From positions 23,236 to 55,235 of the forward strand of contig JASBTJ010000025.1 in NCBI GenBank assembly GCA_030148485.1: a DNA stretch of 32,000 bases, read 5' to 3'. This DNA is from Gammaproteobacteria bacterium. GTDB taxonomy: Bacteria > Pseudomonadota > Gammaproteobacteria > Chromatiales > Chromatiaceae. Below the pieces are notes generated by a model that saw nothing but the letters and a program-made list of their open reading frames with translations, was not told the origin of the DNA and searched no databases. Numbering within the stretch: position 1 is the first letter of the stretch; the number at the start of each line of letters is the position of its first letter. Shown piece by piece: positions 2,646 through 21,689 of the stretch. Position numbers and translations under genes: made by a program.

Positions 2646-2657
2646 GTGCCCCGTGAT

Positions 2658-2683: not shown

Positions 2684-2695
2684 ACCCCGCACAAC

Positions 2696-3808: not shown

Positions 3809-3827
3809 TCACGATACGGACGGGAGT

Positions 3828-5689: not shown

Positions 5690-5735
5690 GACACCCCCTG
5701 CGCCTCGGTGCCCTGCCCCAAGTATAGCGGCACAG

Positions 5736-6259
5736 CTACCGTGGCCGTTGGTGGCCGGGACTCACCGGCTCGGCCGAGATGTGGTACTCGTCGGTCCTCT
5801 TGCCGACCGAATCGGCGAAATATTTGATCAACGACCCGTAGGCCACGCTGAGCAGGCCCGGTAACTCGAGGCCCTCGTCGCGCAGCGGTATCTTCTCGAT
5901 GTTCTGGATGAGGTCAGCCAGGGTGGGCAGGCCGATCATCTTGTTGAAGTCGATGCCCTTGAGCACATCCTGCTGGGCATCAATATTGCGGTCCTCGGCC
6001 GCACCTCCAAGGCCTTGTCCAGACCGGTGCCAACTTTTCCTTGAGGTGTTTGACCTTGGGCCACTGAGCGCTTTCCGGCACCTGGAAGTACTTGCCCGAG
6101 TATTGCTCAGGGTCATTCAGCAGTTTCTTGATGGCAGCCATGTTCCATGAGCTTCTTTCCGAGCGCTTTGCGACGCCGATCGAACAACATGCTGTCCTGC
6201 AGGTCGTCACAGGCACGCAGCAGTAGACCTTCGAGTTGGGACAGGGTCAGTTTGGACGT
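5736..6259 (-). pseudogene. hsdM: remnant of a type I restriction-modification methylase (HsdM) N-terminal region: frameshifted, internally deleted, 3'-truncated
   Basis: Three reverse-strand frames each carry consecutive HsdM_N-like pieces. Piece 1 is (ACG)SKLTLSQLEGLLLRACDDLQDSM at 6259 downward. Piece 2 is MAAIKKLLNDPEQYSGKYFQVPESAQW. Piece 3 is IDAQQDVLKGIDFNKMIGLPTLADLIQNIEKI...LLSVAYGSLIKYFADSVGKRTDEY, which I compare with the HsdM pattern DxxGxxYExLIxxFAxxxGKxxGEFYTP. The expected ATG is ACG, and the frame ends at 5736 with no methylase catalytic domain. Confidence 0.5.
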
Positions 6260-6275
6260 GCGTTATTCGTTCTCG

Positions 6276-8226: not shown

Positions 8227-8279
8227 CGCCCCACAATCGCTCGACTCCGCTCATGACAGAGCCACCCGCGACCCAGGGC

Positions 8280-8337
8280 AATTGTTCACGATATTAGCAC
8301 GTACATTAATAATGTACAGATGCCAATTATGAACAAT
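8280..8337. promoter_or_regulatory. nested inverted repeats upstream of the AbiEi-like gene (candidate operator)
   Basis: Outer arms are AATTGTTCA (8280-8288) and TGAACAATT (8329-8337). The inner palindrome is GTACATTA-A-TAATGTAC (8301-8317). The site is an AT-rich patch 55-110 nt upstream of the start at 8226. Confidence 0.45.
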
Positions 8338-8554
8338 TAGGCTACCCCGGTAACCCCAAGCATCCCCTGCGCTAATGCCTTGCCGCACCTGCCAATCAGC
8401 GCTTTGGTCTGCCTCAAATGAAACGAAAGGGCATCCAGGGAGAAAAGCAACTTCCGCCCGGCCACATGCCCCAAGCCATGCGCAACATCGACAGCCAACC
8501 GACCCGGGTGGCTCGTCCCGCAGGCGATGAGGATTTGTGGCTATCAATGTAGCC

Positions 8555-8591
8555 AGAAAAAGAAAAAGGGCTTGGCCGCAAGGCCAAGCCC
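8555..8591 (-). terminator. rho-independent terminator (minus strand), next to the tRNA-like remnant
   Basis: Minus strand reads GGGCTTGGCC-TTGC-GGCCAAGCCC followed by TTTTTCTTTTTCT, a 10-bp perfect stem. Confidence 0.6.
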
Positions 8592-8598
8592 TTTCTTG

Positions 8599-8610
8599 TA
8601 TGGTCGTGCA
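8599..8610. repeat. candidate distal att remnant (gapped copy of the tRNA-Lys 3' end region)
   Basis: TATGGT----CGTGCA at 8599-8610 matches TATGGTGGGTCGTGCA at 21612-21627, which is the tRNA 3' end plus 2 flanking nt. That is 12/12 identities with a 4-nt gap. Each copy is followed, in the minus direction, by a strong terminator. Confidence 0.3.
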
Positions 8611-8952
8611 CCAACCAAAAAACAACAATAACATACTGTTATTTATGAATAATAATAAATACGACGATAGCTAGAACCCCCATTAATACCCCCTCCAGTC
8701 ATTGCAGCCAGCGTCGAAACAGCGCATACGACAAGCGCTCCCAAGTTGCGCGGCAGCGCCATCAATAGCTCGCTCGTGCTACGGAATAAAGCATGCTGAG
8801 AGCCTATGGACTGGCCAAGTAGCTATGCTACTGGCGCACAGCACCGGCATTCCATACCATCCAAATAACATCGTGCCTTGACCGGTAAAGCTTCTCGACA
8901 AATACCTGCACGTACTGTCCGGCCGGGACCTCCTTACGAAGGAAATAGTCAG

Positions 8953-9150
8953 ATGTGGCTTTCTAAGCAGCAACTAGAAGACCTCACGAAACGGAAAACC
9001 GGCAAGGCCCAGTGTCGCGCGCTCGACTATCTTGGCATTCCGTATCGCGTAGGACTCGACGGGAAGCCGGTGGTGTTTGAACGAGACCTGACCGCCGAGA
9101 CTGACCCTGAGAAACGCACCGAACCAAACTGGGATGCACTGAAGAATTGA
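8953..9150 (+). CDS. DUF4224-like small phage/island protein
   Basis: Internal start of ORF 8878..9150 preceded by AAGGA. It reads MWLSKQQLEDLTKRKTGKAQCRALDYLGIPYRVGLDGKPVV, which resembles the DUF4224 pattern (L-x-x-x-E-L-x-x-L-T-x...Q...L...GIP...G-x-P-V). Confidence 0.55.
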   Translation: MWLSKQQLEDLTKRKTGKAQCRALDYLGIPYRVGLDGKPVVFERDLTAETDPEKRTEPNWDALKN

Positions 9151-9222
9151 AACGAGCGCAGTACATCTTCAACGCAGATCCCTACTGTAAATAAGCGCAC
9201 CTCGACAGCCCAAATCAGGTTA

Positions 9223-9534
9223 TCAATTGCTGGTTAATCCATTCTTCAGCCATTCGGAATAATATGCCAAGCGCTCCGCAACTAACCTGACATCGTGATT
9301 CGGTATGACCACCAGACGGGCCGCATCTGCCTGCAGTTCACCCGCCATGAGGTAAAGGCCTGCGATCAAGGTGGAGTTGCGAGGCGTATTGGCAATTTGG
9401 ATTTGCGCCCGCCGCATAGCAGCGGCTAGATGACGTTCGCATTCGCGCGATTTGGCTTTCGTTTGAGCGCCGTCGCTACGCTTTCCATCCATGTTCCGGC
9501 GGTCGTTGATGTAGGATACATTTGACATAGCCAA
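9223..9534 (-). CDS. hypothetical protein
   Basis: 103-aa ORF in the lower-GC arm of the island, divergent from the RHH gene. No family recognised. Confidence 0.45.
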   Translation of the reverse strand: MAMSNVSYINDRRNMDGKRSDGAQTKAKSRECERHLAAAMRRAQIQIANTPRNSTLIAGLYLMAGELQADAARLVVIPNHDVRLVAERLAYYSEWLKNGLTSN

Positions 9535-9549
9535 ATACCTTTTTCCAAT

Positions 9550-9617
9550 TTATTGTAAAGACAATTATTTTACTGCTATAAGGCCCTGTCAAGTATTTTT
9601 TGTCTTTACTACAATAA
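9550..9617. promoter_or_regulatory. inverted repeat in the divergent promoter region
   Basis: TTATTGTAAAGACA (9550-9563) pairs with TGTCTTTACTACAATAA (9601-9617). The arms are complementary apart from a 3-nt insertion in the right arm and bracket an AT-rich 37-nt spacer. Confidence 0.45.
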
Positions 9618-9621
9618 AGGC

Positions 9622-9801
9622 ATGGCTACTGAACAAAGAAGGCGCCGTGGCGCTCCAAGAAAAGCGGTTACCGCAAGCAAGTTGGTCAACATCCGCGTGA
9701 CGGAAGAACAGCATGCCGCATGGCACGCCGCCGCCATCCGAGACGGCTACAAATCCCTCGCCGCATGGATCAAGAATCTTGCCGACAACAAGTCAGCGTA
9801 A
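9622..9801 (+). CDS. small ribbon-helix-helix-like DNA-binding protein (59 aa, below the ORF-track cutoff)
   Basis: My own translation: MATEQRRRRGAPRKAVTASKLVNIRVTEEQHAAWHAAAIRDGYKSLAAWIKNLADNKSA. The basic N-terminus, a beta-strand (LVNIRVT) and two helices (EEQHAAWHAAA / SLAAWIKNL) fit a CopG/Arc/MobC-type RHH layout. Confidence 0.5.
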   Translation: MATEQRRRRGAPRKAVTASKLVNIRVTEEQHAAWHAAAIRDGYKSLAAWIKNLADNKSA

Positions 9802-9942
9802 CTCGTGATGCTCAATGAACATGAATGCACGGCGGCCCTTCGCCGTCAACAGCGTCAACATGCTCCATCGCGCGCGTGAGACAAGGCCTCATCATTAGCG
9901 TCGGCTTAAGTCTGACGTATACGTTGACGACAGGGGACTGAC

Positions 9943-10158
9943 ATGAATCAAACGACGAGTTCGCGGCAATGGCTGGTTGTTCTAGCAGTGGCACTCGGGC
10001 TAGCAGCTTGGGTGTTTCGGTACGATTTCACCTCTGCACATACGAAGTCTCCTGCCGGATTCGTGCTCGACCGATGGACCGGACAGGTCACGTTCGTGTC
10101 ATACCGTGGACAATTCACGTTGAAACGAAAAACATCCCCTGCCGATGCAGCTCGTTGA
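9943..10158 (+). CDS. small membrane-anchored hypothetical protein
   Basis: 71-aa ORF with AGGGGA Shine-Dalgarno and a single N-terminal TM helix (WLVVLAVALGLAAWVF). Confidence 0.45.
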   Translation: MNQTTSSRQWLVVLAVALGLAAWVFRYDFTSAHTKSPAGFVLDRWTGQVTFVSYRGQFTLKRKTSPADAAR

Positions 10159-10242
10159 TGAGCAACGGCCGTGATTCGCGTAGCCCGCCTGCCCACCCTA
10201 CGATACCCGGCGCCACCTTGTGCACAACGAGCGCGAGACGAA

Positions 10243-13200
10243 TCACCGGCCACCGTCGAACTGACGGATCGCTTGCCGCCGCAATTCCTTCGGCATCGTT
10301 CGTAGGAACCTGTCTTCTGCCGTCATCCGCTTATCCCTCAGCCGCCATTTGATCTGCTGCCTGTTGATGACAATGGGAAGCTGTGGATTGGCCTGATTCC
10401 ACTTCGCAAGCTCCTCCCGTGCTTCGCGAATCATGGTCTTGTCTCGTTCGAAGATCCCCTGTGCCCACTTGTCGGCGATAGCATCCTTCCGCAGCCGGTG
10501 CATATTTCTGTCCTCTGTCAGCATGCGCTTTGCCGCCTGAATCTTGGACACCCGATTGGGATGGAACCCGATCGCCTTCCACACAGATTCTCCGAGCGTT
10601 GCATCCGTGACCTTGCGGTCCTGCCAATCGCGGTACTCGCCGGTCCGCATCATGTCGATGCCCTGCGCGATATGTCCTATTGCACGCGGGGCCAACTCGC
10701 CTCCCGCGCTTTGCAGTTCCCCGCGCGCGACCTTTTCCGCGGCGCGCGTCGCGCTCTGGACTAGCGATCCCGCTGGGCCGAGCAATTCAGCAGTATCCCG
10801 CCCTTTGCTGGGATTGGACGGTACCAGCGCGCCGGTGCCGGGAATCAAATTTCCAAGCGATAACCGAGATTGCACATCGATGGGCATTCCGGGTATGCCG
10901 GACACGCCTTTGAGAAGAATATCGCCGAAGGTGTTGCCCAGCGTCTGGTGCGCCCACTCTTGCAGTTGGCGCTTGCTGTTGGTCGGGTACCCCATCCACT
11001 GTCCGATCGCGTCGATAATATCCTCCAGGTCTTCCGCGAAGGGCAGGCCCTCTAGCCCCGCACCAGCAACCAACAAGGCCAAGGCGATAGCCTTCTGCTT
11101 CGCGGGCAGGCGACCGATGAACTCCAGGTAGTTCACCAAGAACTGCTTGAAGGTGAACAGCGGCGCCCCGATGCCACGCGCCCAGTTTGGCCTGTTGTGG
11201 CGGGCGTATACGAACTGGGTTTCCTCGACGGCTTCCTTGGCGAAAGCGTAGGGGTCTGCCGCCCCTTTGCGTCGAGCAATGTCGTAGGCCGCATTGAATG
11301 TCAATAACCGGTTGTATTGTTCGGCTGTCTGGAAGAAGTATCCCCAGGCGTACAGCGCAATTTGTGCGGGTTGGCTTTGCAGCAGCTTTCCACCACCCAA
11401 TCGCCCACCCCTGGCCGTGGCCATCAGGTTGTATATCTCTTGGGGCGCTACGACGCCTTCTTCCTTGGCGCGTTTAATCGCTTCACGGTGAGCGGGGTCG
11501 GTTGGCGCCCGACCACTCATCCACTTTGCGACCTTGGCCGGTGCTGCTGCATCGAACTGCGTCAGATAAGGGACCGTGACCATCGGCACTTGGGTCAGGT
11601 TCGTGAGGGCCGATGAGATGGATCCGCCCAGGAAGTGAAAGAACATATAACTCCGGATGCCGGAGAATTCCTCGCGTGGATTTTGCAGGTAGTCAACCAG
11701 TCGCTGGGCCTGTTTTTGCACGTCCCCCTGCGACTTAGGAATATCCTGGACGGCTTGCAGCATGTCGCCCATGTTCAGGTTCTTAGAGGCGGCATTCGCG
11801 TTACTGAGTACGAATGAAGCCAGCACACGGCGTAAGTCATTGGAGAAGCCCGGTATCCCCTTCCGCGTAATCAGACGCTTGAGCGCTGAGCGGTTGTTTA
11901 CTGCATTCTTTAGGTATTCCTGCATCGCCGCGTCTTGATCGACACCAAGGTGGCGAGCGAACAGTTCAATGGTTTCTGGAGTCAACCCGGAATACAGCTT
12001 GAACGCCTCGTCGTTCAGCACCCCGGTTTCAATTTCCGCACCCGGGTATTCCGCGCGCATCATGCGAGTCATCCGGTTGGTTTCCGCCTTCGATTCGAAC
12101 ATGCCGAAGTAGACGCGCTTGCCGTCAGCGTCAACGACATCAACCGTGTACTTGCCAAAGCGTGTCAGCGGAAAATAGCCCTCGCGCTTTAACTTCTGTG
12201 CCTTGTTGGCGATCTTCACCAGGTCTTTACGGGACGCATCTACCAAGGCGATCTTTTTCTGCCACTTGGCGGCGCGGGCCTCAGCCCCATCCGTGCCCTT
12301 TGCTAATGCGAGGTTCTCTTCCAGTTCTTCCCGCACCTCGGAAAGGATCCGGTCCAAGTTCTCTTGCACTTCGAACACCGTCTCGGTGCCCTCGCCCAGG
12401 GCCATGTCACCAAGTTCCCGTGGCATACCCAGCTTGCGGGTCATGCGGACCATGGCTGTTTTTGTCAGATCGTCCAGCGAGTGGTGTGCCGATGCGATGA
12501 CCTGCCGGTACAGGCCGATCTGCTTGGCGTTCAGGCCAAATTGCTTAGACAGCTCTTCATCCGCATACACCTTCTGCTGCGCAATGGTTCCCTCGAATAC
12601 GGCGTTGGCCACCAATTCAAGGTCTGCCGTTCGAGCGTTGCCCGTCGTGGCGGCTTTCTTCAAGGTGTCGGACCGGCGGAAAAGATCAGGCGCAAGCCGC
12701 TCCGACCGAATGGCATAAGTTGACGTGTCCGTCATGTAGTCTTCGGCCAAGTTGTAGACCCGGGCGAAGTGGCTATTCTTCTTCGCCAGCCCGCGCATGG
12801 TGCCAACGGACTTCTGCCATAACGTGACCTTGCCGGGGCCGGTGAAGTGATCCTCGGCATATTGGGATGCTGAACGGGACAAATCCCGAACCGCCTTCAC
12901 CCCTTCCACGGGGTCAAAGCCGGATTGCAGGGTACCAGGGCCAGATGCGCCCTTGGGCGGCGTGAGGTCTAGCTGGCCGCCTTCTTCGCGTCCCCGTAAC
13001 GCCAAGGCAAATCCAGACCGGAGTCGTCCCAGCTCGGGATCCTCCCCGTTTCCAGCGCCTCGATCATGATCTGCTCGAGGGCGTCCCCCTGGCCGTCCAG
13101 GCTGACGTACCGCAACAGACCCTCGGGCAAAGGACCAAACCTTTCTCGATACGTCTCGTGTAACTGGATCGGATTCAGCTTGGAATAGTCCATGGTAGAC

Positions 13201-15987
13201 CTCGTAGGCTTTCGGCAGCGCGGCGCGCATCGCGGCCGGCTCTGCAAAGTAGATTACACCAAGTCGGGCAAACAGTTCTGCCTTCACGCGGTCATCGGGC
13301 AAAAGACCGCGGTCAGCAACCGGATACCGCAGCAATCGCGCCAATTCCCCGTTGTTGGAAACGTGGTCGATCGCCTCGCGGGCGATGTCGCCCTTATCCA
13401 AGTCGAGCCGAGGGCTGCTCGCACTGATCGTTCGATCCGCCCCGACCACATCCACGGCATGCAGCAATTCTTCCGCGACGAATGCGGCAGCGGTATCACG
13501 GTGTAGCTGGTACGCCGGGTCGAACTCCACTACGCGGTCATCAAGAGAAAACCGCATGGGAACACCGACAGGTAGCGCCTCATTCGGCACGAAATCCAGG
13601 CCCAGCCGAAGACCGGTGATCTTCTCGGCGTCGGCAATTGCGGTGCCCATGTCCACGGGATCGCTGCCCAATTCGCTGAACGCCGCCTGGGATTTGTTAC
13701 GGGCATCCAGCTTGCCGCTGTCGTTGCTCAGGCTCGCACCAGTGATGTCCTCGGCGTCATACCGCGCCGATGGCGTGAGCTTGCGTTGCCACGCCTGATT
13801 CTTTGGTGACCACCGAAACCCCTTCCCCTTGAGCGCCCGAATCGTCTCCTGCGGCGGCTTCTCGTCATGCTTGATGCGCAGCACACCGGCAGCGTGGTCA
13901 AGTTCGATATGGCCGTCCTCGAACGCGACCGATTCGCTCCCGCCGGTGGATTTTGCCGCGGCAGACTGCGATTCCAGGGCATCCACCCGCTGACGCAGCC
14001 GGCGAATCTCCGCATTGTTGTTGCTCAGCTCGAAGGTCTTGAAGCCGGTGCGGCCTGCGAAATCGGGCTTATTGAGGGCGTCGATTTGCTTGTCCGTCAG
14101 GCCAATATCCAGAAGCTGGGCGCGCTTTTCGCTGTCCTTCAGTTTCTTGCTGCGCAGTACCTTATTGGCCGCCTTCATCTGCTCTTGGGCCTTCTCGCGC
14201 TGGGCGAGCTTGCTCTTGGCTTGAGTGAGCTGTGCTTGGGTGCTGTTGTCGACCGGGCCTTTCGCCAGTTTCTTGAGCCGCTTCACGCCGCGCTCGTAGA
14301 AGGCCATCGCTTCATCAAGCCGCTTATCCGCCGAGCGCATGCGTTTCTCGTTGGCCGCCACCGGGAACTTCGCCGGGCCGGTGATGAACGCGCTGGCTAC
14401 CCGGCCATGTGCACTCAAGTAAGCGCGCAGCTTGTTCGCGTAGCTCTCCCGGAACTGGGGGAAGAATTTCGCAACCCGGGCCCGGCCCGCCTCATCCTTG
14501 ATGCTCGCTTCGACATCACGCCATGCCCGCACCATGTCTTGGACATATTCACGTCGGGCCAGATTGCCGCGCTTATCCGGCGTGTGGCTGGTATTCCGAT
14601 ACGCTTGATAGGCCAGATCGGCGGGGATGTCGTCCTCGACCACCTTCACCGGCAACTGAGTCTCAGCGATCTGTTTCACGCCTTCGTATTGCCCGTCGTG
14701 AACGGCTTGGGCCACCTCGTCAATCTCCGCGCCGCTGCGGGATACCTTCCCTTCGCGGGCCTTGTCCATCAAGGCCTGAACGTCGCCGAACGGATCGTCT
14801 CGGCCCAAGGCTTTGGCGCGCTCTGTGACGGATGCTTGGCCGGTGTCGGCGGCAGGTTGATCGACAGACTCAGGCTTCAGCTGCTCCGGACGGGCCGATT
14901 CGTCTGCCCGCGCTTCCCTGGTTTCCGGTGACTTGGGTTGCTCCTGCTCGGACGGCACAACAGGTTCGGACGGGCGACCAGAAGCCGACTGCGCTACATC
15001 TGATTTGCTTTCGGCCGAATCCGGCGTAATACTTTCATCAAGCTCTGGTTGATTCCGGCCCATCGCTTCGGGCGTATCTGCGACGCCTCCCTCGGGAGTA
15101 GCACGTAAGGGGGTACGGGTCTTCCTGAGCGTTTTCTTTGCAGGTTCCTGGATCAGTCCCTTGCGCGTGTACTTCACGCGGCCGTCGCCCAGGTCTTGCA
15201 TGTCGAACCGCTCGCGCAGTCCCATCTTGTTCAGGCCGCGCAGCCTGGTGGACTTCGGCATGATGATCTCGTCGATGGCATCGTCGGTCACCGCATCCAC
15301 CACGAATTCCTTCCCGCCCACGATGCCAGTTCCTGGTTTTTGGTGCTCCCGACCGCTCAGGGCGTCACCGCGGAACTTCACCAATACCCCCTTGTTCCCG
15401 CCCTGCCCAATCGCCAGCGACTCGTCATCAGTCACGAACATGCCATTGGGGCGAGGCGTAATGTTCTCGTTCTCAGGCTTGGTGCGGTTGTCCAACAGCA
15501 GACTGTCCAACCCATTTTCGTTTGTCTCGCGCCAGTAGCTCCCTGCCGGCAACGGATTCAGTTTGACCGTTGCGCCAAGCCCAATATTCAGGATCCTGCC
15601 AGACTCGATAACCGGGCGACGTTCCGGCAACTCAGTAGCCGCACTGCTATCCTGTGGCGAAGGCTCAGGCGGTGCAGGCTGGTCCTGCGCTGTCCGTGGC
15701 GTCGGCATTGCCACATCCACATTGCCCGGCATTGACCCGGTGCTGGCGTTCTTCGGCGCGGTCCACGCCGGTGGCGCCTGCTGGGGCTGTGGCTGCGCCT
15801 GGGCAGCCTGGACCACTTGGCGTTGGGGCTCGGCCTGCCGCTGGGCATTCGCTGGATCCAGGGCATCCCGGGCAGCCTGATCGACCTGCTTCGGATCCAC
15901 ATGGGCGTCCTCGATACGCCGGAGCACCTGGCCGCCCAGCCGCTCCTGGGGCGTGGCCACGTTGCCGGACGCACCGGCACCGACCAA
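10243..15987 (-). CDS. giant polyvalent-type protein, PLxRFG domain-containing (1914-codon segment downstream of an in-frame TAG)
   Basis: Uninterrupted 5745-nt frame. FPLTRFGKY (PLxRFG motif) is encoded at 12154-12171. A DUF3560-like motif, VAFEDGHIELD...KPPQETIRALKGKGFRWSPKNQAWQR, is encoded at about 13780-13960. P/Q-rich and acidic linkers separate globular blocks. The C-terminal ~900 aa contain hydrophobic helices. The only start is a TTG, and the 24 codons upstream stay open and look coding. Confidence 0.8.
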   Translation of the reverse strand: MVGAGASGNVATPQERLGGQVLRRIEDAHVDPKQVDQAARDALDPANAQRQAEPQRQVVQAAQAQPQPQQAPPAWTAPKNASTGSMPGNVDVAMPTPRTAQDQPAPPEPSPQDSSAATELPERRPVIESGRILNIGLGATVKLNPLPAGSYWRETNENGLDSLLLDNRTKPENENITPRPNGMFVTDDESLAIGQGGNKGVLVKFRGDALSGREHQKPGTGIVGGKEFVVDAVTDDAIDEIIMPKSTRLRGLNKMGLRERFDMQDLGDGRVKYTRKGLIQEPAKKTLRKTRTPLRATPEGGVADTPEAMGRNQPELDESITPDSAESKSDVAQSASGRPSEPVVPSEQEQPKSPETREARADESARPEQLKPESVDQPAADTGQASVTERAKALGRDDPFGDVQALMDKAREGKVSRSGAEIDEVAQAVHDGQYEGVKQIAETQLPVKVVEDDIPADLAYQAYRNTSHTPDKRGNLARREYVQDMVRAWRDVEASIKDEAGRARVAKFFPQFRESYANKLRAYLSAHGRVASAFITGPAKFPVAANEKRMRSADKRLDEAMAFYERGVKRLKKLAKGPVDNSTQAQLTQAKSKLAQREKAQEQMKAANKVLRSKKLKDSEKRAQLLDIGLTDKQIDALNKPDFAGRTGFKTFELSNNNAEIRRLRQRVDALESQSAAAKSTGGSESVAFEDGHIELDHAAGVLRIKHDEKPPQETIRALKGKGFRWSPKNQAWQRKLTPSARYDAEDITGASLSNDSGKLDARNKSQAAFSELGSDPVDMGTAIADAEKITGLRLGLDFVPNEALPVGVPMRFSLDDRVVEFDPAYQLHRDTAAAFVAEELLHAVDVVGADRTISASSPRLDLDKGDIAREAIDHVSNNGELARLLRYPVADRGLLPDDRVKAELFARLGVIYFAEPAAMRAALPKAYEVYHGLFQAESDPVTRDVSRKVWSFARGSVAVRQPGRPGGRPRADHDRGAGNGEDPELGRLRSGFALALRGREEGGQLDLTPPKGASGPGTLQSGFDPVEGVKAVRDLSRSASQYAEDHFTGPGKVTLWQKSVGTMRGLAKKNSHFARVYNLAEDYMTDTSTYAIRSERLAPDLFRRSDTLKKAATTGNARTADLELVANAVFEGTIAQQKVYADEELSKQFGLNAKQIGLYRQVIASAHHSLDDLTKTAMVRMTRKLGMPRELGDMALGEGTETVFEVQENLDRILSEVREELEENLALAKGTDGAEARAAKWQKKIALVDASRKDLVKIANKAQKLKREGYFPLTRFGKYTVDVVDADGKRVYFGMFESKAETNRMTRMMRAEYPGAEIETGVLNDEAFKLYSGLTPETIELFARHLGVDQDAAMQEYLKNAVNNRSALKRLITRKGIPGFSNDLRRVLASFVLSNANAASKNLNMGDMLQAVQDIPKSQGDVQKQAQRLVDYLQNPREEFSGIRSYMFFHFLGGSISSALTNLTQVPMVTVPYLTQFDAAAPAKVAKWMSGRAPTDPAHREAIKRAKEEGVVAPQEIYNLMATARGGRLGGGKLLQSQPAQIALYAWGYFFQTAEQYNRLLTFNAAYDIARRKGAADPYAFAKEAVEETQFVYARHNRPNWARGIGAPLFTFKQFLVNYLEFIGRLPAKQKAIALALLVAGAGLEGLPFAEDLEDIIDAIGQWMGYPTNSKRQLQEWAHQTLGNTFGDILLKGVSGIPGMPIDVQSRLSLGNLIPGTGALVPSNPSKGRDTAELLGPAGSLVQSATRAAEKVARGELQSAGGELAPRAIGHIAQGIDMMRTGEYRDWQDRKVTDATLGESVWKAIGFHPNRVSKIQAAKRMLTEDRNMHRLRKDAIADKWAQGIFERDKTMIREAREELAKWNQANPQLPIVINRQQIKWRLRDKRMTAEDRFLRTMPKELRRQAIRQFDGGR
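12969..13193 (-). CDS. embedded alternative-frame ORF (74 aa) inside the giant gene; status uncertain
   Basis: ATG preceded by GAGGT 5 nt upstream. It reads MDYSKLNPIQLHETYRERFGPLPEGLLRYVSLDGQGDALEQIMIEALETGRIPSWDDSGLDLPWRYGDAKKAAS. By hand count its third-position G+C is 59/74. Over the same stretch the giant-ORF frame scores 36/80 and translates as R/G/P-rich low complexity. Confidence 0.45.
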   Translation of the reverse strand: MDYSKLNPIQLHETYRERFGPLPEGLLRYVSLDGQGDALEQIMIEALETGRIPSWDDSGLDLPWRYGDAKKAAS

Positions 15988-16059
15988 CGCCCCGATGGCC
16001 GCCGACTCCCCAACGCCCTCGCCTGCGGGACGCCCGGTTTCCCGGTTGGATATGACCTG

Positions 16060-17268
16060 CTAAACACCCTCTTGGCCGCCTTCGAACGCGGCCCCGAGGG
16101 TGCGCAGAGTGAGTTGCCCACCGGTGTCGCCAAATAGGCCCAGCTTATTGGTGACCGCCAACAAGCCGGCATTTTGCCAAAAGGCCCGGTCGGCGGCCTT
16201 GGCTGCCGCTTTCTCGCCCTTGCCGTCCGCCATCATCTGCTCATACACGGCGCCAGCCTCTACGGCAGCCTCCATGCCAGCCGCGGCCCCGCTGCCCAGC
16301 CAAAGCCCCATGCGAGGCGACACCGATGCCACAGCTTGGGCGCCCTTTGCCAGCCCCATGCCGGGAACGAAAAACGTCGTGGTCGAGCCGGCACCGGCGG
16401 CCAGATTATCCAGGAAGTTCTGATCTGAAGGCATCAGGTCAGCCGCCTGTTGGGTGACCTTGAGCTGCCCTTCCCGCAAGGCATTGGATCCGGTCATGCG
16501 GGCGGCATAGCCCAGCAATCCCCCGCCGGTTTGGATGGCCCCGGCCGTGAAATCCTTGGCGCCCCGGGTTGCCACTCCTTCGGCCGGGCCTATCTGCTCC
16601 CGGGCGCGCTTGGCGGTCGTGGGTGCGTCGAAGCGGCGACCGTCACCGGCGTCGTCCAGCCCGACCTGACGGCCAGCCAAGTACAGCGCCACATTCGGGT
16701 CACCGCCCACGGGCACCGCATCCGGATTGCCGAACAGGCTGTCCAAGGCCTGACGGAACGCAGTCTGCTCAGGTGCCGCCCGTACGCCGGCCCCGGGGGC
16801 TTTCGCCAGCACCTCACCGGTTACGTCCGGATACAGCGTCTGCACGGCATTTGTGATGGCCCTTTGTTCAGCGGCTTGCCTGGCCCTAACACCACCGCGG
16901 CCGGTGTACCCGAACTGGCCGTCCTGGGGCGCCTCCGGCATCAACGCGCTGAGCATGTCACCCAGCCCTGGGCCGGTCTGCATGATGCCCTTGGTCGGGA
17001 ACGGCTCTGTCGGTATGGCCGGCGTTTCCTGTGGCGCCGGTGGCGCCGTGGCCGCCTGGATCGCACTCAACGCCTCATTGACGCCGGCAATACCTCCGCT
17101 ACCCGGCGTAACCGGTGCCGCCAGCACCGGTGCCACCCCAAACCGCGCCCCGAAGTCCTCCGGCGTCAGCTTGTCCGCATAGTGCTTCTGATACAGGCGA
17201 GTTGCCAGATCGTCGTCTGGCAAGGTGTCGTATTGCGGATACTGAGCGCGGAACTCGGTGATGTTCAT
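16060..17268 (-). CDS. N-terminal segment of the polyvalent-protein frame (402 aa, ends at in-frame TAG)
   Basis: Start MNITEFRAQYPQYDTLPDDDL overlaps the helicase stop as ATGA. It has Ala/Gly/Pro-rich linkers and a Gly/Ala-rich hydrophobic C-terminal region. It is in the same frame as 10243..15987, since 17304-15987 = 1317 = 3 x 439. Confidence 0.7.
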   Translation of the reverse strand: MNITEFRAQYPQYDTLPDDDLATRLYQKHYADKLTPEDFGARFGVAPVLAAPVTPGSGGIAGVNEALSAIQAATAPPAPQETPAIPTEPFPTKGIMQTGPGLGDMLSALMPEAPQDGQFGYTGRGGVRARQAAEQRAITNAVQTLYPDVTGEVLAKAPGAGVRAAPEQTAFRQALDSLFGNPDAVPVGGDPNVALYLAGRQVGLDDAGDGRRFDAPTTAKRAREQIGPAEGVATRGAKDFTAGAIQTGGGLLGYAARMTGSNALREGQLKVTQQAADLMPSDQNFLDNLAAGAGSTTTFFVPGMGLAKGAQAVASVSPRMGLWLGSGAAAGMEAAVEAGAVYEQMMADGKGEKAAAKAADRAFWQNAGLLAVTNKLGLFGDTGGQLTLRTLGAAFEGGQEGV

Positions 17269-18188
17269 TGCATCAAGTCTCCTATAACGTCGACTCCCCA
17301 GCACATTACCCGGCCAGCTTTATCAGGCACGAACTGCTGGCTGGCGCCGTGGTACCAGAGGTTCACAATCCCTTCCCACTCGCCATGTCGCTGCTTAGCA
17401 ACGTTCAGCGTCGCATCAGGCTCACCAGGATCGCGCGCTCTGCCTACGCGGGCGTCCTCCTCCTTCGCCTTGTTGCGATGCACGATGAAAACGTTGTCGA
17501 CTAGGTCGGTAATCTCGGCTGCTCCGCGGATGTCGAACTTGTCCGGACGCCGATGCTCGTTCTCCCCCTTACGCATGTGAGCAATGAGCACGATGTGCAA
17601 ACCGCTTCCCTTGGCAAGCCAGCAGAGGCGATCCACGAAGTTCTTTTGGGCGTTGTAGTCGTCGGTCCCGATGCCGCACTTCATCAGCGAGTCGATGATC
17701 AAAATGTCTGCTTCGAGAACTTCAGCGGCGTAAACGGTCATACCCAAAATGCGGTCGGTTGGCACACTGTCTTGCTGGTCGTAGATCCACAGTCTGCCAT
17801 CAGTCCAAGACAGGAACCCGTCGATGAAACTCCTCGCCGGGGCGGCAGTGCCTGACGCCTGACGAATCATCCGCTGCAGAGTGGCTGCTGGTGGCATCTC
17901 CATGGACGCGATCACGGTCTTAGCTTCGGGAAGGAGCCACAACGCAATCTGTCCAGTGAGCATGGATTTTCCGTGTCCATTAATGCCTGCAGCGATAGTG
18001 ACCTCGCCAGGACGCAGTGCAACATTGGCGTGAGTCTTGGACCAAGGTAGCGGGAAACCACTTTGCTGCTCCTTCCCCGAGAAACGATCGACTACTGCGG
18101 CATGCCATTCACTTGCTGGACGGACACAGTCACCCTCGCGGTTCTGCAGATACTTGGAGAAATCGATATTGTCTGGGATCACTTGCAT
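17265..18188 (-). CDS. DnaB/RepA-like replicative helicase (RecA-fold ATPase)
   Basis: 307-aa ORF with Walker A AAGINGHGKSM and Walker B ADILIIDSL, then LHIVLIAHMRKG and DIRGAAEITDLVDNVFIVHR, as in DnaB C-terminal/phage primase-helicase ATPase domains. Confidence 0.75.
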   Translation of the reverse strand: MQVIPDNIDFSKYLQNREGDCVRPASEWHAAVVDRFSGKEQQSGFPLPWSKTHANVALRPGEVTIAAGINGHGKSMLTGQIALWLLPEAKTVIASMEMPPAATLQRMIRQASGTAAPARSFIDGFLSWTDGRLWIYDQQDSVPTDRILGMTVYAAEVLEADILIIDSLMKCGIGTDDYNAQKNFVDRLCWLAKGSGLHIVLIAHMRKGENEHRRPDKFDIRGAAEITDLVDNVFIVHRNKAKEEDARVGRARDPGEPDATLNVAKQRHGEWEGIVNLWYHGASQQFVPDKAGRVMCWGVDVIGDLMQ

Positions 18189-18535
18189 CGGATTCTCCTC
18201 ACCATCGGCGTCATATCCGGAGATGGCAGGGTTGGCGTTAGGCTCAGCAGGCCCTCTCGCAGCACGTCAACAAGTTTCCCGCTATCCAGGGCCCAAAGTG
18301 TCAGGCTGTTGACCTGGGCTCGGAACAATGCGTCCGAGACCCGGATAGCTGTTTCGAGTTGCGGGGTGGCGAACGACAGAAACACATCGAGGTCATGGAA
18401 CCCGATCAAGTCGTCTACCGGACTGACGTCAATGGCAGCGTGGTATCGCTTTACCTCAGGAACAAGTGTGGCCAGGACGGGGCCTGCAGGGCGCTGGCCC
18501 GCTTTGCGGAGATCAAGTAGGTTGGTGGCGTTCAT
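18179..18535 (-). CDS. hypothetical protein (replication-module associated)
   Basis: Internal start MNATNLLDLRKAG... of ORF 18179..18652. Its ATG overlaps the upstream stop as ATGA and is preceded by GGGGGGA. No family recognised. Confidence 0.6.
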   Translation of the reverse strand: MNATNLLDLRKAGQRPAGPVLATLVPEVKRYHAAIDVSPVDDLIGFHDLDVFLSFATPQLETAIRVSDALFRAQVNSLTLWALDSGKLVDVLREGLLSLTPTLPSPDMTPMVRRIRCK

Positions 18536-18858
18536 ATTCCCCCCTGTCCGTATGCATTCAGCTCTGCCGAGCCAGACTCCGACTTGCTGCGGCTGTCCCA
18601 GTTCCGCACCGCGGCGCGCCAGTCTTTCATGGGCGATTTGCCGACCTTCCAACCCTTGGATGCGTAGAAATCCACGAACCGCTGGGCATCTACGGCGTAA
18701 TGTTTCTCCGCAACGTACTCTGCGACATCATCGACAGAGGGTGGAGCGAACCGCGAAGCGCTACTACCTACCGAAGTAGAAGATGAAGTAGAAGATGAAG
18801 GGGTTGGATTTTGGTTATCGGCGGTGGTTGTGCGTTGTTTGCCAGCTTGCTTAAGCAA
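18532..18858 (-). CDS. C-terminal part of the replication-initiation protein, in the -1 frame relative to the DUF1376 ORF
   Basis: A Ser/Thr-rich linker is followed by VDDVAEYVAEKHYAVDAQRFVDFYASKGWKVGKSPMKDWRAAVRNWDSR. I recognise this motif from the C-termini of phage/island replication-organiser proteins. The only start is a TTG inside a hairpin, and it overlaps the DUF1376 ORF by 91 nt. Confidence 0.6.
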   Translation of the reverse strand: MLKQAGKQRTTTADNQNPTPSSSTSSSTSVGSSASRFAPPSVDDVAEYVAEKHYAVDAQRFVDFYASKGWKVGKSPMKDWRAAVRNWDSRSKSESGSAELNAYGQGGI

Positions 18859-19211
18859 GCTGGATTCCCGCCCTTTTTCCCGGCTTCTCTACGTATCGCG
18901 CTGATTTCTTCGTCCTTAACCATGCGCTTGTTGAAGATAACGCCGGTGTCGGGATCCACGCGCAGGCACCCGAAGTCGATCAAGGTGGTTAATGTGGTCG
19001 TAAGGGTTTGGTTATCCAAACCGGGCAGCCTGGCGAGCGCCGGCTCGGGCATCTTTTTGCCGTTGAGCAACAGCTTCCCGCGCTCAGCCGACTCATGCAT
19101 GATGCACAGGATCTCAAAGTAAAGGCCTCGCTCGAAGTAACCGAGCGCCTGTACTGATGGGTCTTTCCGCCAGTCTGCTGGGTAGAATTGAAAAGACGGT
19201 GCTTTGGCCAT
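18768..19211 (-). CDS. DUF1376 (YdaU-like) replication-associated protein, zero-frame product
   Basis: MAKAPSFQFYPADWRKDPSVQALGYFERGLYFEILCIMHE... is the canonical DUF1376 N-terminus. GAGGTGA Shine-Dalgarno lies upstream. The last ~30 codons (PPPITKIQPLHLLLHLLLR) look non-coding. Confidence 0.75.
   Translation of the reverse strand: MAKAPSFQFYPADWRKDPSVQALGYFERGLYFEILCIMHESAERGKLLLNGKKMPEPALARLPGLDNQTLTTTLTTLIDFGCLRVDPDTGVIFNKRMVKDEEISAIRREAGKKGGNPACLSKLANNAQPPPITKIQPLHLLLHLLLR
18842..18881 (-). promoter_or_regulatory. candidate -1 programmed ribosomal frameshift cassette
   Basis: Minus strand reads GGG-AAA-AAG in the zero frame (18881-18873), then a 9-nt spacer GGCGGGAAT. After that comes a perfect 22-nt palindrome CCAGCTTGC-TTAA-GCAAGCTGG (18863-18842). 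The -1 frame is open from the TAG at 18890-18892, just upstream of the slippery run, through to the stop at 18532. Confidence 0.4.
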
Positions 19212-19407
19212 AGCTCACCTCACTATCGGCCAGTCGCCAATCGTACGACCCCAAGCAATACACTCGCTGATCGTGCGAGGGGGTGAACTGGCTCCCTGAT
19301 ACCGGCGCCATGCTCCCTTGTCGTACCGCCCGACGGAGAGTAGCCCGCACTCCACAGCTGACGCAGGATCAGCGCCTCGACCGCGGCCACCACCGCACGG
19401 GGCATTA

Positions 19408-19683
19408 CTATGCGTGGGCATAGACGCCGCCCAACACACCCCTATCAGCAGACTTACGCGCGGCCTCGAGCTTTTCAACAAGGGCGCGGATGTCGTCTTC
19501 TGACTTACCGGCGATCCGCGCCGCATTCAGAGCGTCGATTTCCCCCGCAGGCCAACCAACCGCACGGGCTCCCAAGCTCACCGGCTTGGGCCATAGGCCT
19601 TGCGAAATTCGGAGATAGATCGTGGACCGGGCGAGACCGGTTTCAGATTTGACGGCAGGAAGCCGGAGGATCGTAGTGGTCAT
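19408..19683 (-). CDS. alpA: AlpA-family regulator/excisionase
   Basis: Internal start of ORF 19408..19821 preceded by GGAGG. MTTTILRLPAVKSETGLARSTIYLRISQGLWPKPVSLGARAVGWPAGEIDALN is the AlpA/prophage CP4-57 HTH pattern. Confidence 0.8.
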   Translation of the reverse strand: MTTTILRLPAVKSETGLARSTIYLRISQGLWPKPVSLGARAVGWPAGEIDALNAARIAGKSEDDIRALVEKLEAARKSADRGVLGGVYAHA

Positions 19684-19750
19684 CGTTCGCCTCCATCGGC
19701 GTTTCTTAGATGACTTCAGACTCTCCCCTACGGATGCCCATAAACCAGCT

Positions 19751-20230
19751 TCAGGTTGTTGGGTATCGTTGCGGCCGCTCGTGTTTGTAGCGGGGCAGGC
19801 CGCCAGCAGAATGCCACGCATTCTGGACGGCCTTAAACTTCCAATTCATGCGCCGAGCGACCCTCTCTTGCGCGGTCTTCACGACAATTGATTCGCCGCG
19901 ACTAAACATCGTATCGAGCTCTTGACTCACGAGAAGATGACTGAACGCATCGGTTCGCAGACGTGTGTTTGGCCGCCCGCCAACGCTCTCTATGTTCAGT
20001 GCACGCTTAATAGGAATATCATCAACCAGGTAATCACGCAGACACCCGCCCAAATAACGCAATGCGACCAGATCAGCTTCACCGACTGAAGTGCCCAGCT
20101 CAAGACCATTAAGTGCAACGAGAGCGTGCTGGAGTAAAGCACGCCCGGCCTTATCGTCACCGCGTGACGCCAACTTCACCAAGCGCTTTCTGTGAGGCGT
20201 GGCAAGCCGTTGTTTACGAGCGCGAGTCAT
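19751..20230 (-). CDS. hypothetical protein
   Basis: Start MTRARKQRLATPHRKRL lies 8 nt after the integrase stop. 159 aa. No family recognised. Confidence 0.5.
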   Translation of the reverse strand: MTRARKQRLATPHRKRLVKLASRGDDKAGRALLQHALVALNGLELGTSVGEADLVALRYLGGCLRDYLVDDIPIKRALNIESVGGRPNTRLRTDAFSHLLVSQELDTMFSRGESIVVKTAQERVARRMNWKFKAVQNAWHSAGGLPRYKHERPQRYPTT

Positions 20231-20237
20231 ATCCGCA

Positions 20238-21449
20238 TCATCTGGCCGTTCGAATAGGCACAACCTCCGCCCCTGACCTCAAGTGTTCCAAGTATTCGGC
20301 CCAGGCCTGCATCATCTTCCGTCTCTCGGGGAGATGCTCGGCGTAGTTGTAGGCAGCCCTAACCCCGTTGCGCTCAGCATGTGCCAGTTGCCGCTCGATA
20401 GCGTCGTGGTGCCAGCCCTGCTCATTCAGAAGTGTCGATGCCATCGACCTGAAACCATGGCCAGTCATCTGCTCTTTGGTGTAACCCAAGCGCCGCAAGG
20501 CGGCGTTGACAGTGTTTTCGCTCATAGGTCGGTCCTTCGACCGAACGCTGGGGAATACGTACTTCCCCTTCCCCGTCAGCGGCTGAATCTCTTCCAGGAC
20601 GGCCACTGCTTGATCTGACAACGGCACGATGTGAGGGGCCGGCATCTTCATTTTCTCAGCCGGAATGCGCCACTCAGCCGTCTTGAGGTCAATTTCATCC
20701 CATTCAGCGCGCCTAAGTTCACCTGGGCGGACGAAAACTAGCGGCGCCAGACTCAGGGCACACTTCGTCAGAAGATGCCCCTCATAACCCTCTATGGCCC
20801 TCAGCAGCTCCCCAATGGCCTTCGGGTCAGTGATCGAGGCATGGTGCTTCTTCCGGACCGGTGGCAGCGCCCCTCTTAGATCCCCAGAGGGGTCCCGATC
20901 TGCACGACCAGTAGCCACGGCATACCGGAAAACCATGCCGCAATACTGCAACGCCCGGTGAGCCGTATCCAGGGCCCCCCGGGATTCGATTCGGCGGATA
21001 GTTCTCAGGAGCTCAGGGGCATCAATTTCGGCGATTGGCTGGCTTCCGAGCCACGGGTATAAGTCCTTCTCCAGAAGCCTCTTGCTGCGCGTGCTATGGC
21101 TTTCAGACCATCGAGGAGAATTCTTGTCGAACCACTCCTGGCCGATGGCCTCGAAAGTATTCGCCCCCTGCTCCGCCTTCGCGTACTTGGCGGCCCTTTT
21201 AGCCACACCGGGGTCAATGCCATCAACCAGCAGCTTTCGGGCGTCAGTGCGCTTCTCACGGGCTTTCGCGAGTGAGACTTCAGGATAAGGCCCGAGGGAG
21301 ATGAGCTTCTCTTTCCCGTTGATCCGGTACTTGAGTCGCCAGCCCTTACGGCCGTTAGGATTCACCAGGAGAAACAGGCCATGCCCATCGAAGAGCTTGT
21401 AGGGCTTGTCCTTGCCTTTTGCCTTGCGAACCGCGGTGTCTGTCAGCAT
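20238..21449 (-). CDS. int: tyrosine recombinase, P4-type integrase
   Basis: MLTDTAVRKAKGKDKPYKLFDGHGLFLLVNPNGRKGWRLKYRINGKEKLISLGPYPEVSLAKAREKR is a DUF4102-type N-terminal arm-binding domain. The C-terminal catalytic region contains HGFRSMAST ... LAH ... Y. It lies adjacent to tRNA-Lys. An alternative ATG is at 21464. Confidence 0.9.
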   Translation of the reverse strand: MLTDTAVRKAKGKDKPYKLFDGHGLFLLVNPNGRKGWRLKYRINGKEKLISLGPYPEVSLAKAREKRTDARKLLVDGIDPGVAKRAAKYAKAEQGANTFEAIGQEWFDKNSPRWSESHSTRSKRLLEKDLYPWLGSQPIAEIDAPELLRTIRRIESRGALDTAHRALQYCGMVFRYAVATGRADRDPSGDLRGALPPVRKKHHASITDPKAIGELLRAIEGYEGHLLTKCALSLAPLVFVRPGELRRAEWDEIDLKTAEWRIPAEKMKMPAPHIVPLSDQAVAVLEEIQPLTGKGKYVFPSVRSKDRPMSENTVNAALRRLGYTKEQMTGHGFRSMASTLLNEQGWHHDAIERQLAHAERNGVRAAYNYAEHLPERRKMMQAWAEYLEHLRSGAEVVPIRTAR

Positions 21450-21555
21450 TTGGGGGTACCCCATGCGTCAATGAGTCCGGCTACCCCAGGAAATACCCCC
21501 GCGAGGGGTAGCTTTTACCGGATCAGGATAGACGCCACTGGACAGTCGAGGCAAT

Positions 21556-21579
21556 AAAAAAGCCCGCGTTATGCGGGCT
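21556..21579 (-). terminator. rho-independent terminator downstream of tRNA-Lys
   Basis: Minus strand reads AGCCCGC-ATAAC-GCGGGCT followed by TTTTTT. It lies between the tRNA 3' end and the integrase gene, inside the proposed element. Confidence 0.6.
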
Positions 21580-21613
21580 TTTGTACTGCATTGGACCTTA
21601 ATGGTCCGGAATA

Positions 21614-21689
21614 TGGTGGGTCGTGCAGGATTCGAACCTGCGACCAATTGATTAAAAGTCAACTGCTCTACCAACTGAGCTAACGACCC
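21614..21689 (-). tRNA. lysT: tRNA-Lys (anticodon UUU)
   Basis: The reverse complement reads GGGTCGTTAGCTCAGTTGGTAGAGCAGTTGACTTTTAATCAATTGGTCGCAGGTTCGAATCCTGCACGACCCACCA. It is 76 nt, cloverleaf-compatible, with anticodon loop CTTTTAA and an encoded CCA. From memory it matches enterobacterial tRNA-Lys(UUU). Confidence 0.95.

Follow-up and report, generated by a model that had tools for sequence, protein, structure and literature searches.

The window examined here is a stretch of 32,000 nucleotides from contig JASBTJ010000025.1 (positions 23,236 to 55,235 of assembly GCA_030148485.1), which belongs to a gammaproteobacterium of the Chromatiaceae. Between positions 8599 and 21627 it contains a phage-derived island of 13.0 kb, which a P4-type integrase placed in the 3' end of a tRNA-Lys gene. 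The island consists of two kinds of phage module that are joined precisely at a gene boundary. Module (a) comprises the integrase, an AlpA protein and a replication operon of a replisome organiser, a small open reading frame (ORF) and a helicase of the gp4/DnaB type; module (b) is a giant PLxRFG gene, i.e. the last gene of a podovirus virion module. The giant gene is followed by a small ribbon-helix-helix (RHH) regulatory switch and a DUF4224 gene. Today the island is defective: a nonsense codon interrupts the giant gene, the organiser gene is frameshifted, and 4 bp have been deleted from the core of the distal attachment (att) site. Protein families were searched with Pfam, PHROGs and NCBIfam for the main island ORFs and with Pfam and PHROGs for the four small ORFs of the left arm; the search space for the architecture included 5.8 billion proteins, IMG/VR and 185,579 species genomes.

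The integration target is a tRNA-Lys (UUU) gene on the minus strand (21614-21689; ARAGORN; Rfam RF00005, 79 bits), whose 3' end has been rebuilt by island DNA. Two relatives (L144 and L145), reached via the flanking YeeE gene that is 81% identical in both, keep the order tol-pal, queE, queC, yeeE, tRNA-Lys, and the site is empty in both. In these empty sites the tRNA 3' end (...TGCACGACCCACCA or ...AGCACGGCCCACCA) is directly followed by the terminator, the region of which reads TACAAGAAGG, hairpin, CTTTTTCTTT in L144, with GAGAAGG in place of the first word TACAAGAAGG in L145. The minus strand of the window reads GGTTGG-TGCACGACC-A-TACAAGAAAGGG, hairpin, CCCTTTTTCTTTTTCT from 8612 onward, which is a partial tRNA 3' end and then the original terminator of the tRNA (8563-8596, minus strand; a 15-pair stem and a T-run), moved 13 kb by the insertion. 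Directly after the rebuilt 3' end lies an island-borne hairpin with a T-run (21551-21589, minus strand; inverted repeat I3), which serves tRNA-Lys as replacement terminator.

Because the empty sites show the displaced terminator, the boundaries 8599 and 21627 are correct, and the 13-kb element at tRNA-Lys that had been delimited in a sequence-only reading of this DNA is borne out. The distal end is set only by the match of the terminator words, since the left flank is not syntenic: positions 1-8550 of the window do not match the DNA beyond tRNA-Lys in the relatives. Set beside the empty sites, the window gives the proximal att copy as TATGGTGGGTCGTGCA (plus strand, 21612-21627), with a presumed core of 16 bp, and the distal copy as TATGGTCGTGCA (8599-8610), which is this core minus 4 bp. 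The core is probably TGCACGACCCACCATA, with CACC gone from the distal copy; the exact match between the two copies amounts to 9 bp (21619-21627). A search for att repeats in the window by itself gives the 9-bp match at 8602-8610, which is not above chance, matches of 9-11 bp being at chance level. An 11-bp att-like match at 6474 was rejected, as its length is at chance level and it lies inside the AbiEii gene.

The gene order previously read for the island and its ATGA stop/start overlaps (18535-18532 and 17268-17265) are both present on the minus strand. Next to the tRNA lies the P4-type tyrosine integrase (20238-21464, minus strand, 408 aa) with the Pfam domains Arm-DNA-bind_3, Phage_int_M and Phage_integrase; its match to NF007246 (E 4e-94) is under that family's curated cut-off. 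Then come an ORF of 170 aa (TTG start) or 159 aa (ATG start) at 19751-20263 (minus strand), which is a gene call in the Logan assembly too and has no match in Pfam, PHROGs, NCBIfam or PADLOC, and an excisionase/regulator of the AlpA family (19408-19686, minus strand; PF05930, E 1.4e-14) of about 91 aa, the length that it has in the Logan contig described below.

The replisome-organiser gene (18532-19211, minus strand) was recognised from PHROGs and from its homologues; it has a DUF1376-like N-terminus and a conserved C-terminal domain and is frameshifted, with one frame at 18768-19211 (147 aa) and the other at 18532-18858 (108 aa). The N part matches PHROGs 13246 and 9327 and the C part PHROG 15768, which are replisome-organiser and primosomal families. 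The outright label DUF1376 that the gene had received is not sustained, in that Pfam DUF1376 (PF07120) gives no match at E<=5 and the gene is split in two frames. Homologues in L073 (253 aa) and L056 (209 aa) are single ORFs; two further loci, L006 and L042, were discarded as organiser homologues, both encoding unrelated initiators. The L073 organiser, which like that of the window begins with a 'PSFQFYP' motif, reads ...GGHLGGNPTLKKLKE...PTPSSSSSS..., and the window has ...GKKGGNPA in one frame, continued by LLKQAGKQ...PTPSSSTSSS in the next; the gene thus aligned is short by one base near 18855-18862. A perfect 18-bp palindrome, AGCTTGCTTAAGCAAGCT, lies at 18844-18861, exactly where the organiser changes frame, and may have promoted the loss of 1 nt. 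A programmed frameshift was rejected, there being no slippery heptamer at 18855-18865. Nor is the frameshift the error of one assembler, because an independent Logan contig (L150, SRR23576960_33847) is 100% identical over 21689-16504. The first base of this contig coincides with the 5' end of the tRNA, and it breaks off in the giant gene at 16504; repeats or strain variation in a metagenome typically give such breakpoints, which could stem from a mixture of cells that have the island and cells that lack it.

Between organiser and helicase stands an ORF of 118 aa (18179-18535, minus strand). Its position is conserved in relatives, with ORFs of 149-157 aa at the same place in L073 and L042 whose N-terminal motif is similar by eye; it has no family match in Pfam or PHROGs, and a helicase loader would be our guess. 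The helicase (17265-18188, minus strand, 307 aa) is of the T7 gp4 type (Pfam DnaB_C and AAA_25; PHROGs 5482 and 239), without a primase domain. It has relatives in named phages, and the helicase/organiser module is common in IMG/VR, mostly in phage contigs about 35-40 kb long.

The point at which the two modules meet is exact. The helicase aligns with its homologues to about residue 303 of 307 (...WGVDVIG), and the N-terminus of the giant protein aligns from residue 1-2. The join reads ...ATAGGAGACTTGATGCAATGAAC..., with 'MNITEFRAQYPQYD...' as the N-terminus of the giant protein; an AGGAGA ribosome-binding site lies 9 nt before ATG 17268, this ATG overlaps the helicase TGA, and no gene stump is found at the helicase-giant junction. 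Since a neutral deletion would rarely be so precise, the exact, stump-free and translationally coupled junction favours a selected arrangement and suggests a join of the kind found in phage mosaics and satellites.

Numbered from ATG 17268, the full giant frame has 2341 aa. The giant gene does take up more than half of the element, as had been stated, but the 7062-nt frame described from 17304 to 10243 is not open: an in-frame TAG interrupts it at 16060-16062, separating the N-terminal 402 codons (16063-17268, starting with the ATG of the ATGA overlap) from the remaining 1938 codons (10243-16059), all on the minus strand. What is encoded now are two ORFs of 402 aa and 1914 aa, present at NCBI as the proteins P0293 and P0001, respectively. 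The nature of the TAG follows from alignment with P0294, a protein of 795 aa that is encoded in the virion module of a podovirus and carries a PBECR3 nuclease domain. Residues 101-470 of the giant protein align with it at 50% identity, straight through the TAG (window ...FEGGQEGV*QVISN...GVGESAAIGALVGAG..., P0294 ...MEGSQEGAQQVVSN...GVGESAAIGALVGGG...). Because this 50%-identical protein reads Gln there, the TAG is a CAG>TAG nonsense mutation in a conserved domain. The first possible restart codon after it is still inside the conserved domain, and TTG 15987 has no credible ribosome-binding site before it. Over the giant gene, the giant frame contains 2 stops versus 70-71 in the other two frames, and the periodicity of GC content over the three codon positions (GC1>GC2<GC3) is maintained on both sides of the TAG; by these measures the lesions look recent. 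The TAG itself is read in one assembly.

At its C-terminus the giant protein carries the PLxRFG region (aa ~1436-2336). The NCBIfam model NF032893 (PLxRFG, 'tail-700') matches with E 1.2e-148 and 496.6 bits (cut-off 100), residues 1270-1902 of the 1914-aa ORF covering model positions 2-680 of 681, and PHROG 11358 matches with E 6e-197. The name-giving motif is present as PLTRFG (GYFPLTRFGKYTV). The N-terminus matches PHROG 10691, and aa 1-77 match the N-terminus (residues 3-76) of P0014, a protein of 3275 aa with LPD1, LPD5, LPD34 and LPD39 domains and a PLxRFG end. A module of about 165 aa (aa 541-705) recurs at 35-50% identity in seven further large proteins of phage type. Its structure model (predicted local distance difference test, pLDDT, 80) has no significant structure match in PDB, and at E<=0.001 a search of BFVD returns another giant phage protein only; reading it as an ADP-ribosyltransferase was rejected, as the matches to diphtheria and pertussis toxin have E>0.7 and a template modelling score of ~0.2.

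Further along, a module of about 300 aa (aa ~875-1184), which occurs both stand-alone and within giant proteins, is the main match among 4347 relatives of aa 720-1470. Of the two modules named in the sequence-only reading, PLxRFG is thus confirmed by NF032893 and DUF3560 is not: on aa 940-1200, Pfam DUF3560 (PF12083) gives no match at E<=5. A stand-alone homologue (P0189) touches PF12083 below threshold (E 3e-4); since it alone matches the family, and only sub-threshold, this region is at most a distant relative of DUF3560. The module at aa ~1177-1446 is held in common with P0276, which carries ART-PolyVal and LPD38. Overall, the giant protein contains at least five separable modules, each common to different giant phage proteins, and the proteins that have modules in common with it carry LPD1, LPD5, LPD22, LPD34, LPD38, LPD39, InPase, ART-PolyVal or PBECR3. 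The giant protein itself has no Pfam match at E<=0.01 as a whole and no credible one at E<=5 on segments, and no sequence relative in PDB; neither these searches nor the model of aa 541-705 reveal an effector domain of recognisable biochemical activity. From its modules we classify it as a giant virion protein of the polyvalent type. The earlier view that it belongs among polyvalent proteins packaged in virions agrees with the LPD, InPase, ART-PolyVal and PBECR3 domains of the proteins with which it has modules in common.

Giant PLxRFG proteins are widespread in temperate podophages. In our analysis, giant proteins from phage, plasmid and genome loci match the C-terminal ~900 aa at 35-46% identity: 68 phage records, 41 of them Pseudomonas phages including the F116-like Hollowayvirus group (other hosts being Klebsiella, Erwinia, Vibrio and others), 11 records of non-mobilisable plasmids, and 59 loci in species-representative genomes, mostly prophages of Burkholderiales, Psychrobacter and Pseudomonas. 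To F116-like phages the C-terminal 885 aa have 38% identity over 98% of their length, the values for the F116 and H66 proteins lying at ~37-39%. H66 gp60, a protein of 3787 aa encoded by the last gene before the holin, is annotated as a virion component by mass spectrometry. F116 p60 and H66 gp60 are described as homologues of T7 internal virion protein D (gp16), and H66 gp60 has been likened to N4 gp50, with an ejection-protein part fused to parts that act intracellularly (Hardies et al., PMC4819975). The 'cargo' of the island would accordingly itself be a piece of phage delivery machinery, and the statement that the element has 'no delivery machinery of its own' is misleading: its giant protein matches F116 p60/H66 gp60, which are of the T7 gp16 type according to PMC4819975.

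Each of the ~70 relatives examined lies in or beside phage genes. Mostly they follow directly after genes of structural or tail type, at the end of the virion block, and where upstream neighbours are identifiable, the relative is the last gene of the virion module. In three of five phage contigs of podovirus type it stands right after structural genes, and homologues of H66 gp54-gp59 are found upstream in at least 16 of ~25 genomic loci in which at least 1.5 kb of upstream sequence is visible. Within the 5.8 billion proteins, none comes closer than ~40% identity to the giant protein over its C-terminal two-thirds, and for the conserved C-terminal part this limit applies to every database searched, apart from the fragment of ~160 aa described next; the N-terminal region is matched at 50% identity by a single relative, the P0294 protein used above. 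The closest PLxRFG relative, at ~55% identity, is located in a metagenome-assembled genome (MAG) of Methylococcaceae (L135:14-1195, CAJAWH010000140.1). That copy ends after ~160 aa of the domain and a 2557-aa ORF comes next; this fragment may represent another copy in decay, in a different lineage.

Helicase and giant gene are not adjacent in any of the other loci compared (0/59 genomic loci of giant-gene relatives; 0/80 helicase loci, i.e. the best 80 of 368 helicase relatives in IMG/VR, at 43-56% identity). Every island protein tested forms a singleton cluster, IMG/VR scanned with the PLxRFG region as a single protein gives no match, and scans of IMG/VR with the integrase and with the 118-aa ORF reveal no locus with the same backbone. 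Two loci are instructive for the parts. At the end of a prophage region in an Albidiferax MAG (L137:1904-16702), a PLxRFG gene of 3608 aa, ~2.5 kb with a homologue of an endolysin, a P4-type integrase (46% identity with that of the window) and tRNA-Ser stand together, which shows that the integrase type of the window serves a larger phage region carrying a PLxRFG giant gene. The 15-kb contig L042 (IMGVR_UViG_3300037418_003871) contains a P4-type integrase (39%), a replication initiator of a different family from the window organiser, a small ORF and a helicase (46%), with a cluster resembling type I restriction-modification methyltransferases as cargo and no structural genes in the 15 kb; it is a backbone of similar type that carries defence cargo.

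The left arm of the island contains the four small genes previously read there. An ORF of 71 aa with one hydrophobic segment (9943-10158, plus strand) and one of 103 aa (9223-9534, minus strand) have no family match in Pfam, PHROGs or PADLOC. The latter is divergent from the gene of a 59-aa RHH-like protein (9622-9801, plus strand), whose matches to ParG (E 5e-4) and RHH_10 (E 2e-3) are both below the Pfam cut-offs. Between them lies a divergent promoter region (9550-9614) with promoter-like sites at 9592-9564 (minus strand) and 9586-9615 (plus strand), a near-consensus promoter TTGACA-17-AATAAT, and the 15-nt inverted repeat I2 with the arms TTATTGTAAAGACAA / TTGTCTTTACTACAA, a probable operator for the RHH protein; the whole looks like an autoregulated switch. 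The DUF4224 protein (8878-9150, plus strand; likely start ATG 8953) is excisionase-like (PF13986, E 5e-10; PHROG excisionase families, E 4e-7).

Likewise in line with what had been claimed, searches of the island ORFs yield no capsid, terminase, portal, tail or lysis family (Pfam, PHROGs, NCBIfam) and no relaxase, coupling-protein or type IV secretion system (T4SS) family (Pfam, NCBIfam). No credible defence-system match was obtained for them with PADLOC, and the window contains no homologue of an H66 structural or lysis gene. Rfam finds the tRNA alone on the island, the PADLOC/Rfam scans adding one sub-significant match to the helicase.

Taking these observations together, we interpret the island as a defunct, satellite-like mosaic that formerly depended on a podovirus helper, and assign this a probability of roughly 45%. 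Before its decay it would have been a satellite-like, helper-dependent element, which AlpA and the integrase would have excised at the ~16-bp core and whose circle the organiser and helicase would then have replicated. The giant protein, translated in coupling with the helicase, would have been loaded by its gp16-like C-terminal region into the helper capsid, the helper being a podovirus of the F116/P22 structural group. At infection it would have been ejected with the DNA, the C-terminal part helping to form the ejection channel and the N-terminal and middle modules acting within the new host. The present island would no longer perform any of these steps. The sequence-only reading had pictured an intact element whose fitness hinges on the giant protein; with three lesions, no such protein is encoded now. 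Its proposal of a satellite or mobilisable element fits the integrase, AlpA, the replication module and the lack of packaging and transfer genes, and fails in that the element is defective now rather than active.

Several points weigh against this interpretation. The replication module is without a primase, neither a packaging signal nor a small terminase or capsid-redirecting gene was found on the island, and the window shows no helper prophage. The 5.8 billion proteins, IMG/VR and the 185,579 species genomes yielded neither a further copy of the architecture nor a relative of it, so that the expected recurrence as a discrete unit failed in every collection searched. The link from PLxRFG to T7 gp16 that we adopt rests on the literature: a profile of six PLxRFG sequences compared by hhalign with T7 gp16 gives a probability of 0.2%, and the AlphaFold2 model of the C-terminal 907 aa is all-helical with a pLDDT of 55, too low for a fold search, its Foldseek matches being dismissed as meaningless at that model confidence. 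Excision, replication and packaging of the 13-kb unit are steps that we infer. Finally, the order integrase, excisionase, replication, gap, ejection protein, membrane ORF, RHH switch is presumably colinear with the P22-type prophage map, an analogy only; one internal deletion could therefore have made the island.

Such a deletion is the essence of the explanation that competes most seriously with a satellite-like origin, and we consider it quite possible, if tentative: a complete temperate podovirus, with the order integrase, excisionase, replication, morphogenesis, ejection protein and immunity switch, would have integrated at tRNA-Lys, lost a block of ~25-40 kb for morphogenesis and lysis in one deletion and would now be decaying as the remnant of a plain cryptic prophage, the 13-kb unit never having propagated itself. 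The phage setting of all examined giant-gene relatives, at the end of the virion module where the upstream genes are identifiable, fits this well, as do the 35-40 kb phage contigs in which most relatives of the helicase module reside, the two pseudogenes and damaged att, the singleton status of the sequence and the colinearity with P22-type prophages that we presume. L137, which combines a PLxRFG giant gene with a P4-type integrase and a tRNA in one larger prophage region, points the same way; its giant gene, however, faces the integrase, opposite to the arrangement in the window. What is difficult to reconcile with a remnant is the junction, which is exact and without any gene fragment, with native ends on both sides and an intact ribosome-binding site and ATGA coupling.

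The giant gene, or its C-terminal part of 1.9k aa, could instead have been kept as domesticated, interfering cargo, a decoy that incoming podophages of the F116/P22 group would take up and that would poison their particles or ejection. The long ORF of the C-terminal part remains open, the island borders on a defence islet with AbiE and a fragment of a type I methyltransferase, and interference functions are common in satellites and cryptic prophages according to passages in PMC10085698 and PMC10803314. An ejection-protein decoy is nevertheless without known precedent, TTG 15987 lacks a credible ribosome-binding site ahead of it and PADLOC has no match, and we judge this reading to be quite unlikely.

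Still more improbable is an active satellite or mobilisable element in which read-through, a programmed shift or a split into two genes would make the TAG and the frameshift tolerable. One argument for it is the homologue in F116, a viable phage, the giant gene of which is likewise annotated in two pieces as p59 and p60 (PMC4819975). In addition, the organiser frameshift sits in the perfect 18-bp palindrome, the reading frames are clean on either side of the lesion, and according to passages in PMC10803314 phage-inducible chromosomal minimalist islands (PICMI) are satellites without capsid-remodelling genes. Yet the TAG lies in a domain conserved on both sides of it with the first restart codon within this domain, no slippery heptamer is present at the frameshift, the distal att core is short by 4 bp, and ARAGORN finds no suppressor tRNA in the window. 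That the locus is an artefact, i.e. a chimeric contig of a metagenome bin joining unrelated phage fragments, is hardly credible: the MAG-like source with its contig of 58.8 kb, the singleton proteins and the breaks of the Logan contig at the tRNA and at 16504 stand against the 100% identity of the latter over 21689-16504, a stretch that takes in the tRNA, integrase, helicase and beginning of the giant gene, against both att halves and the displaced terminator on one contig in the expected geometry, and against a giant frame that is continuous across domains.

Compared with known systems, the closest counterparts of the giant protein are those of F116-like podophages (Hollowayvirus H66 gp60 and F116 p59+p60), which are likewise giant and built of many modules and are 37-39% identical over the C-terminal ~900 aa. 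The island protein is shorter (2341 aa versus 2449 to more than 4300 aa) and has no methyltransferase or other recognised enzymatic module, and its gene lies outside a virion module, being coupled to a helicase gene on a 13-kb island and interrupted by a nonsense codon. Polyvalent proteins of phages and conjugative elements are predicted to be injected, and their genes are located among virion (late) or T4SS genes, which would allow them to travel with the DNA (Iyer et al. 2017, PMC5512222). The island protein resembles them in having several domains common to other polyvalent proteins and relatives among virion genes; it differs in that its gene follows a helicase, that no virion or T4SS gene is present on the island and that no known biochemical domain is assigned in this copy.

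Phage-inducible chromosomal islands (PICI), which in Gram-negative bacteria consist of int, alpA, pri-rep and a packaging module, resemble the element in size (about 10-15 kb; the island has 13 kb), in a tyrosine integrase at att, AlpA, a replication module of their own and the lack of structural and lysis genes, but no packaging or hijack family of the terS, rppA, cpm or ppi type occurs in the scanned island ORFs. Of the P4-like core (psu, delta, sid, the primase-helicase alpha, eps, cos) the island has none and is similar only in the P4-type integrase and AlpA. PICMI consist of int, alpA and a primase and are integrated beside fis in Vibrionaceae, whereas the island is at tRNA-Lys, without a primase, in a host near Sedimenticola/Thioalbus; capsid-remodelling genes are dispensable in PICMI, according to passages in PMC10803314. 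Set against all three satellite groups, the island lacks primase, terS, rpp, cpm, sid and psu as well as an identified cos or pac feature; replication is by an organiser together with a helicase of the gp4 type, a virion protein of the presumed ejection type forms the cargo, and the element has no known helper, does not recur and is defective. A complete tailed prophage would have terminase, portal, major capsid, tail and lysis genes between the att sites, which the island has not, and an integrative and conjugative or mobilisable element is opposed by the lack of relaxase, coupling-protein and T4SS families in the scanned ORFs. Like cryptic prophages at tRNA genes, it has an integrase by the tRNA, pseudogenes and a distal att that is degenerate, and it is devoid of morphogenesis genes; the exact, translationally coupled junction without stumps sets it apart from them.

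In terms of novelty, a satellite-like island and a cryptic prophage with a polyvalent virion protein are each of a kind already known. It is doubtful that the island, before its decay, represented the first satellite type seen without capsid-redirecting or packaging genes but with an ejection/polyvalent protein of its own, loaded into the helper capsid. We are equally sceptical that in such a type the giant protein would have been co-translated with the replication genes and would have acted in place of, or beside, the protein of the helper, leaving the satellite in control of DNA delivery and protection. Had the element once functioned in this manner, satellites could parasitise the ejection apparatus of the helper and its slot for injected effectors, beyond capsid and packaging; to our knowledge, no described satellite family takes over either. 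It would also have offered a small, tractable context for studying giant PLxRFG proteins. With one copy only, and that one broken, the locus is chiefly useful as a guide to finding intact relatives, in which a PLxRFG gene would be coupled in translation to a helicase within a tRNA island of 10-15 kb. The case also cautions that a long open frame judged by eye may conceal a stop codon and a frameshift.

Outside the island, FIST and DnaJ-related genes lie in the DNA to the left, together with the pair AbiEii/AbiEi and a fragment of a type I methyltransferase. A small decayed defence islet (5739-8226), lower in GC than its flanks, abuts the distal island end; its genes are a 126-aa fragment of a type I restriction-modification methyltransferase (5739-6116; PADLOC, E 9e-12), AbiEii (6276-7175) and AbiEi (7138-8226). 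On the other side, the interval between ruvB and ruvA (30773-31564) is without counterpart in L144 or L145; within it, 31083-31226 contains six copies of an 18-nt tandem repeat, which would encode an acidic peptide repeat rich in His, Glu and Asp. Inside the tolB homologue (26200-26486), a word of 23-32 nt occurs three times with a spacing of 132 nt, which probably reflects repeated PD40 / beta-propeller blades.

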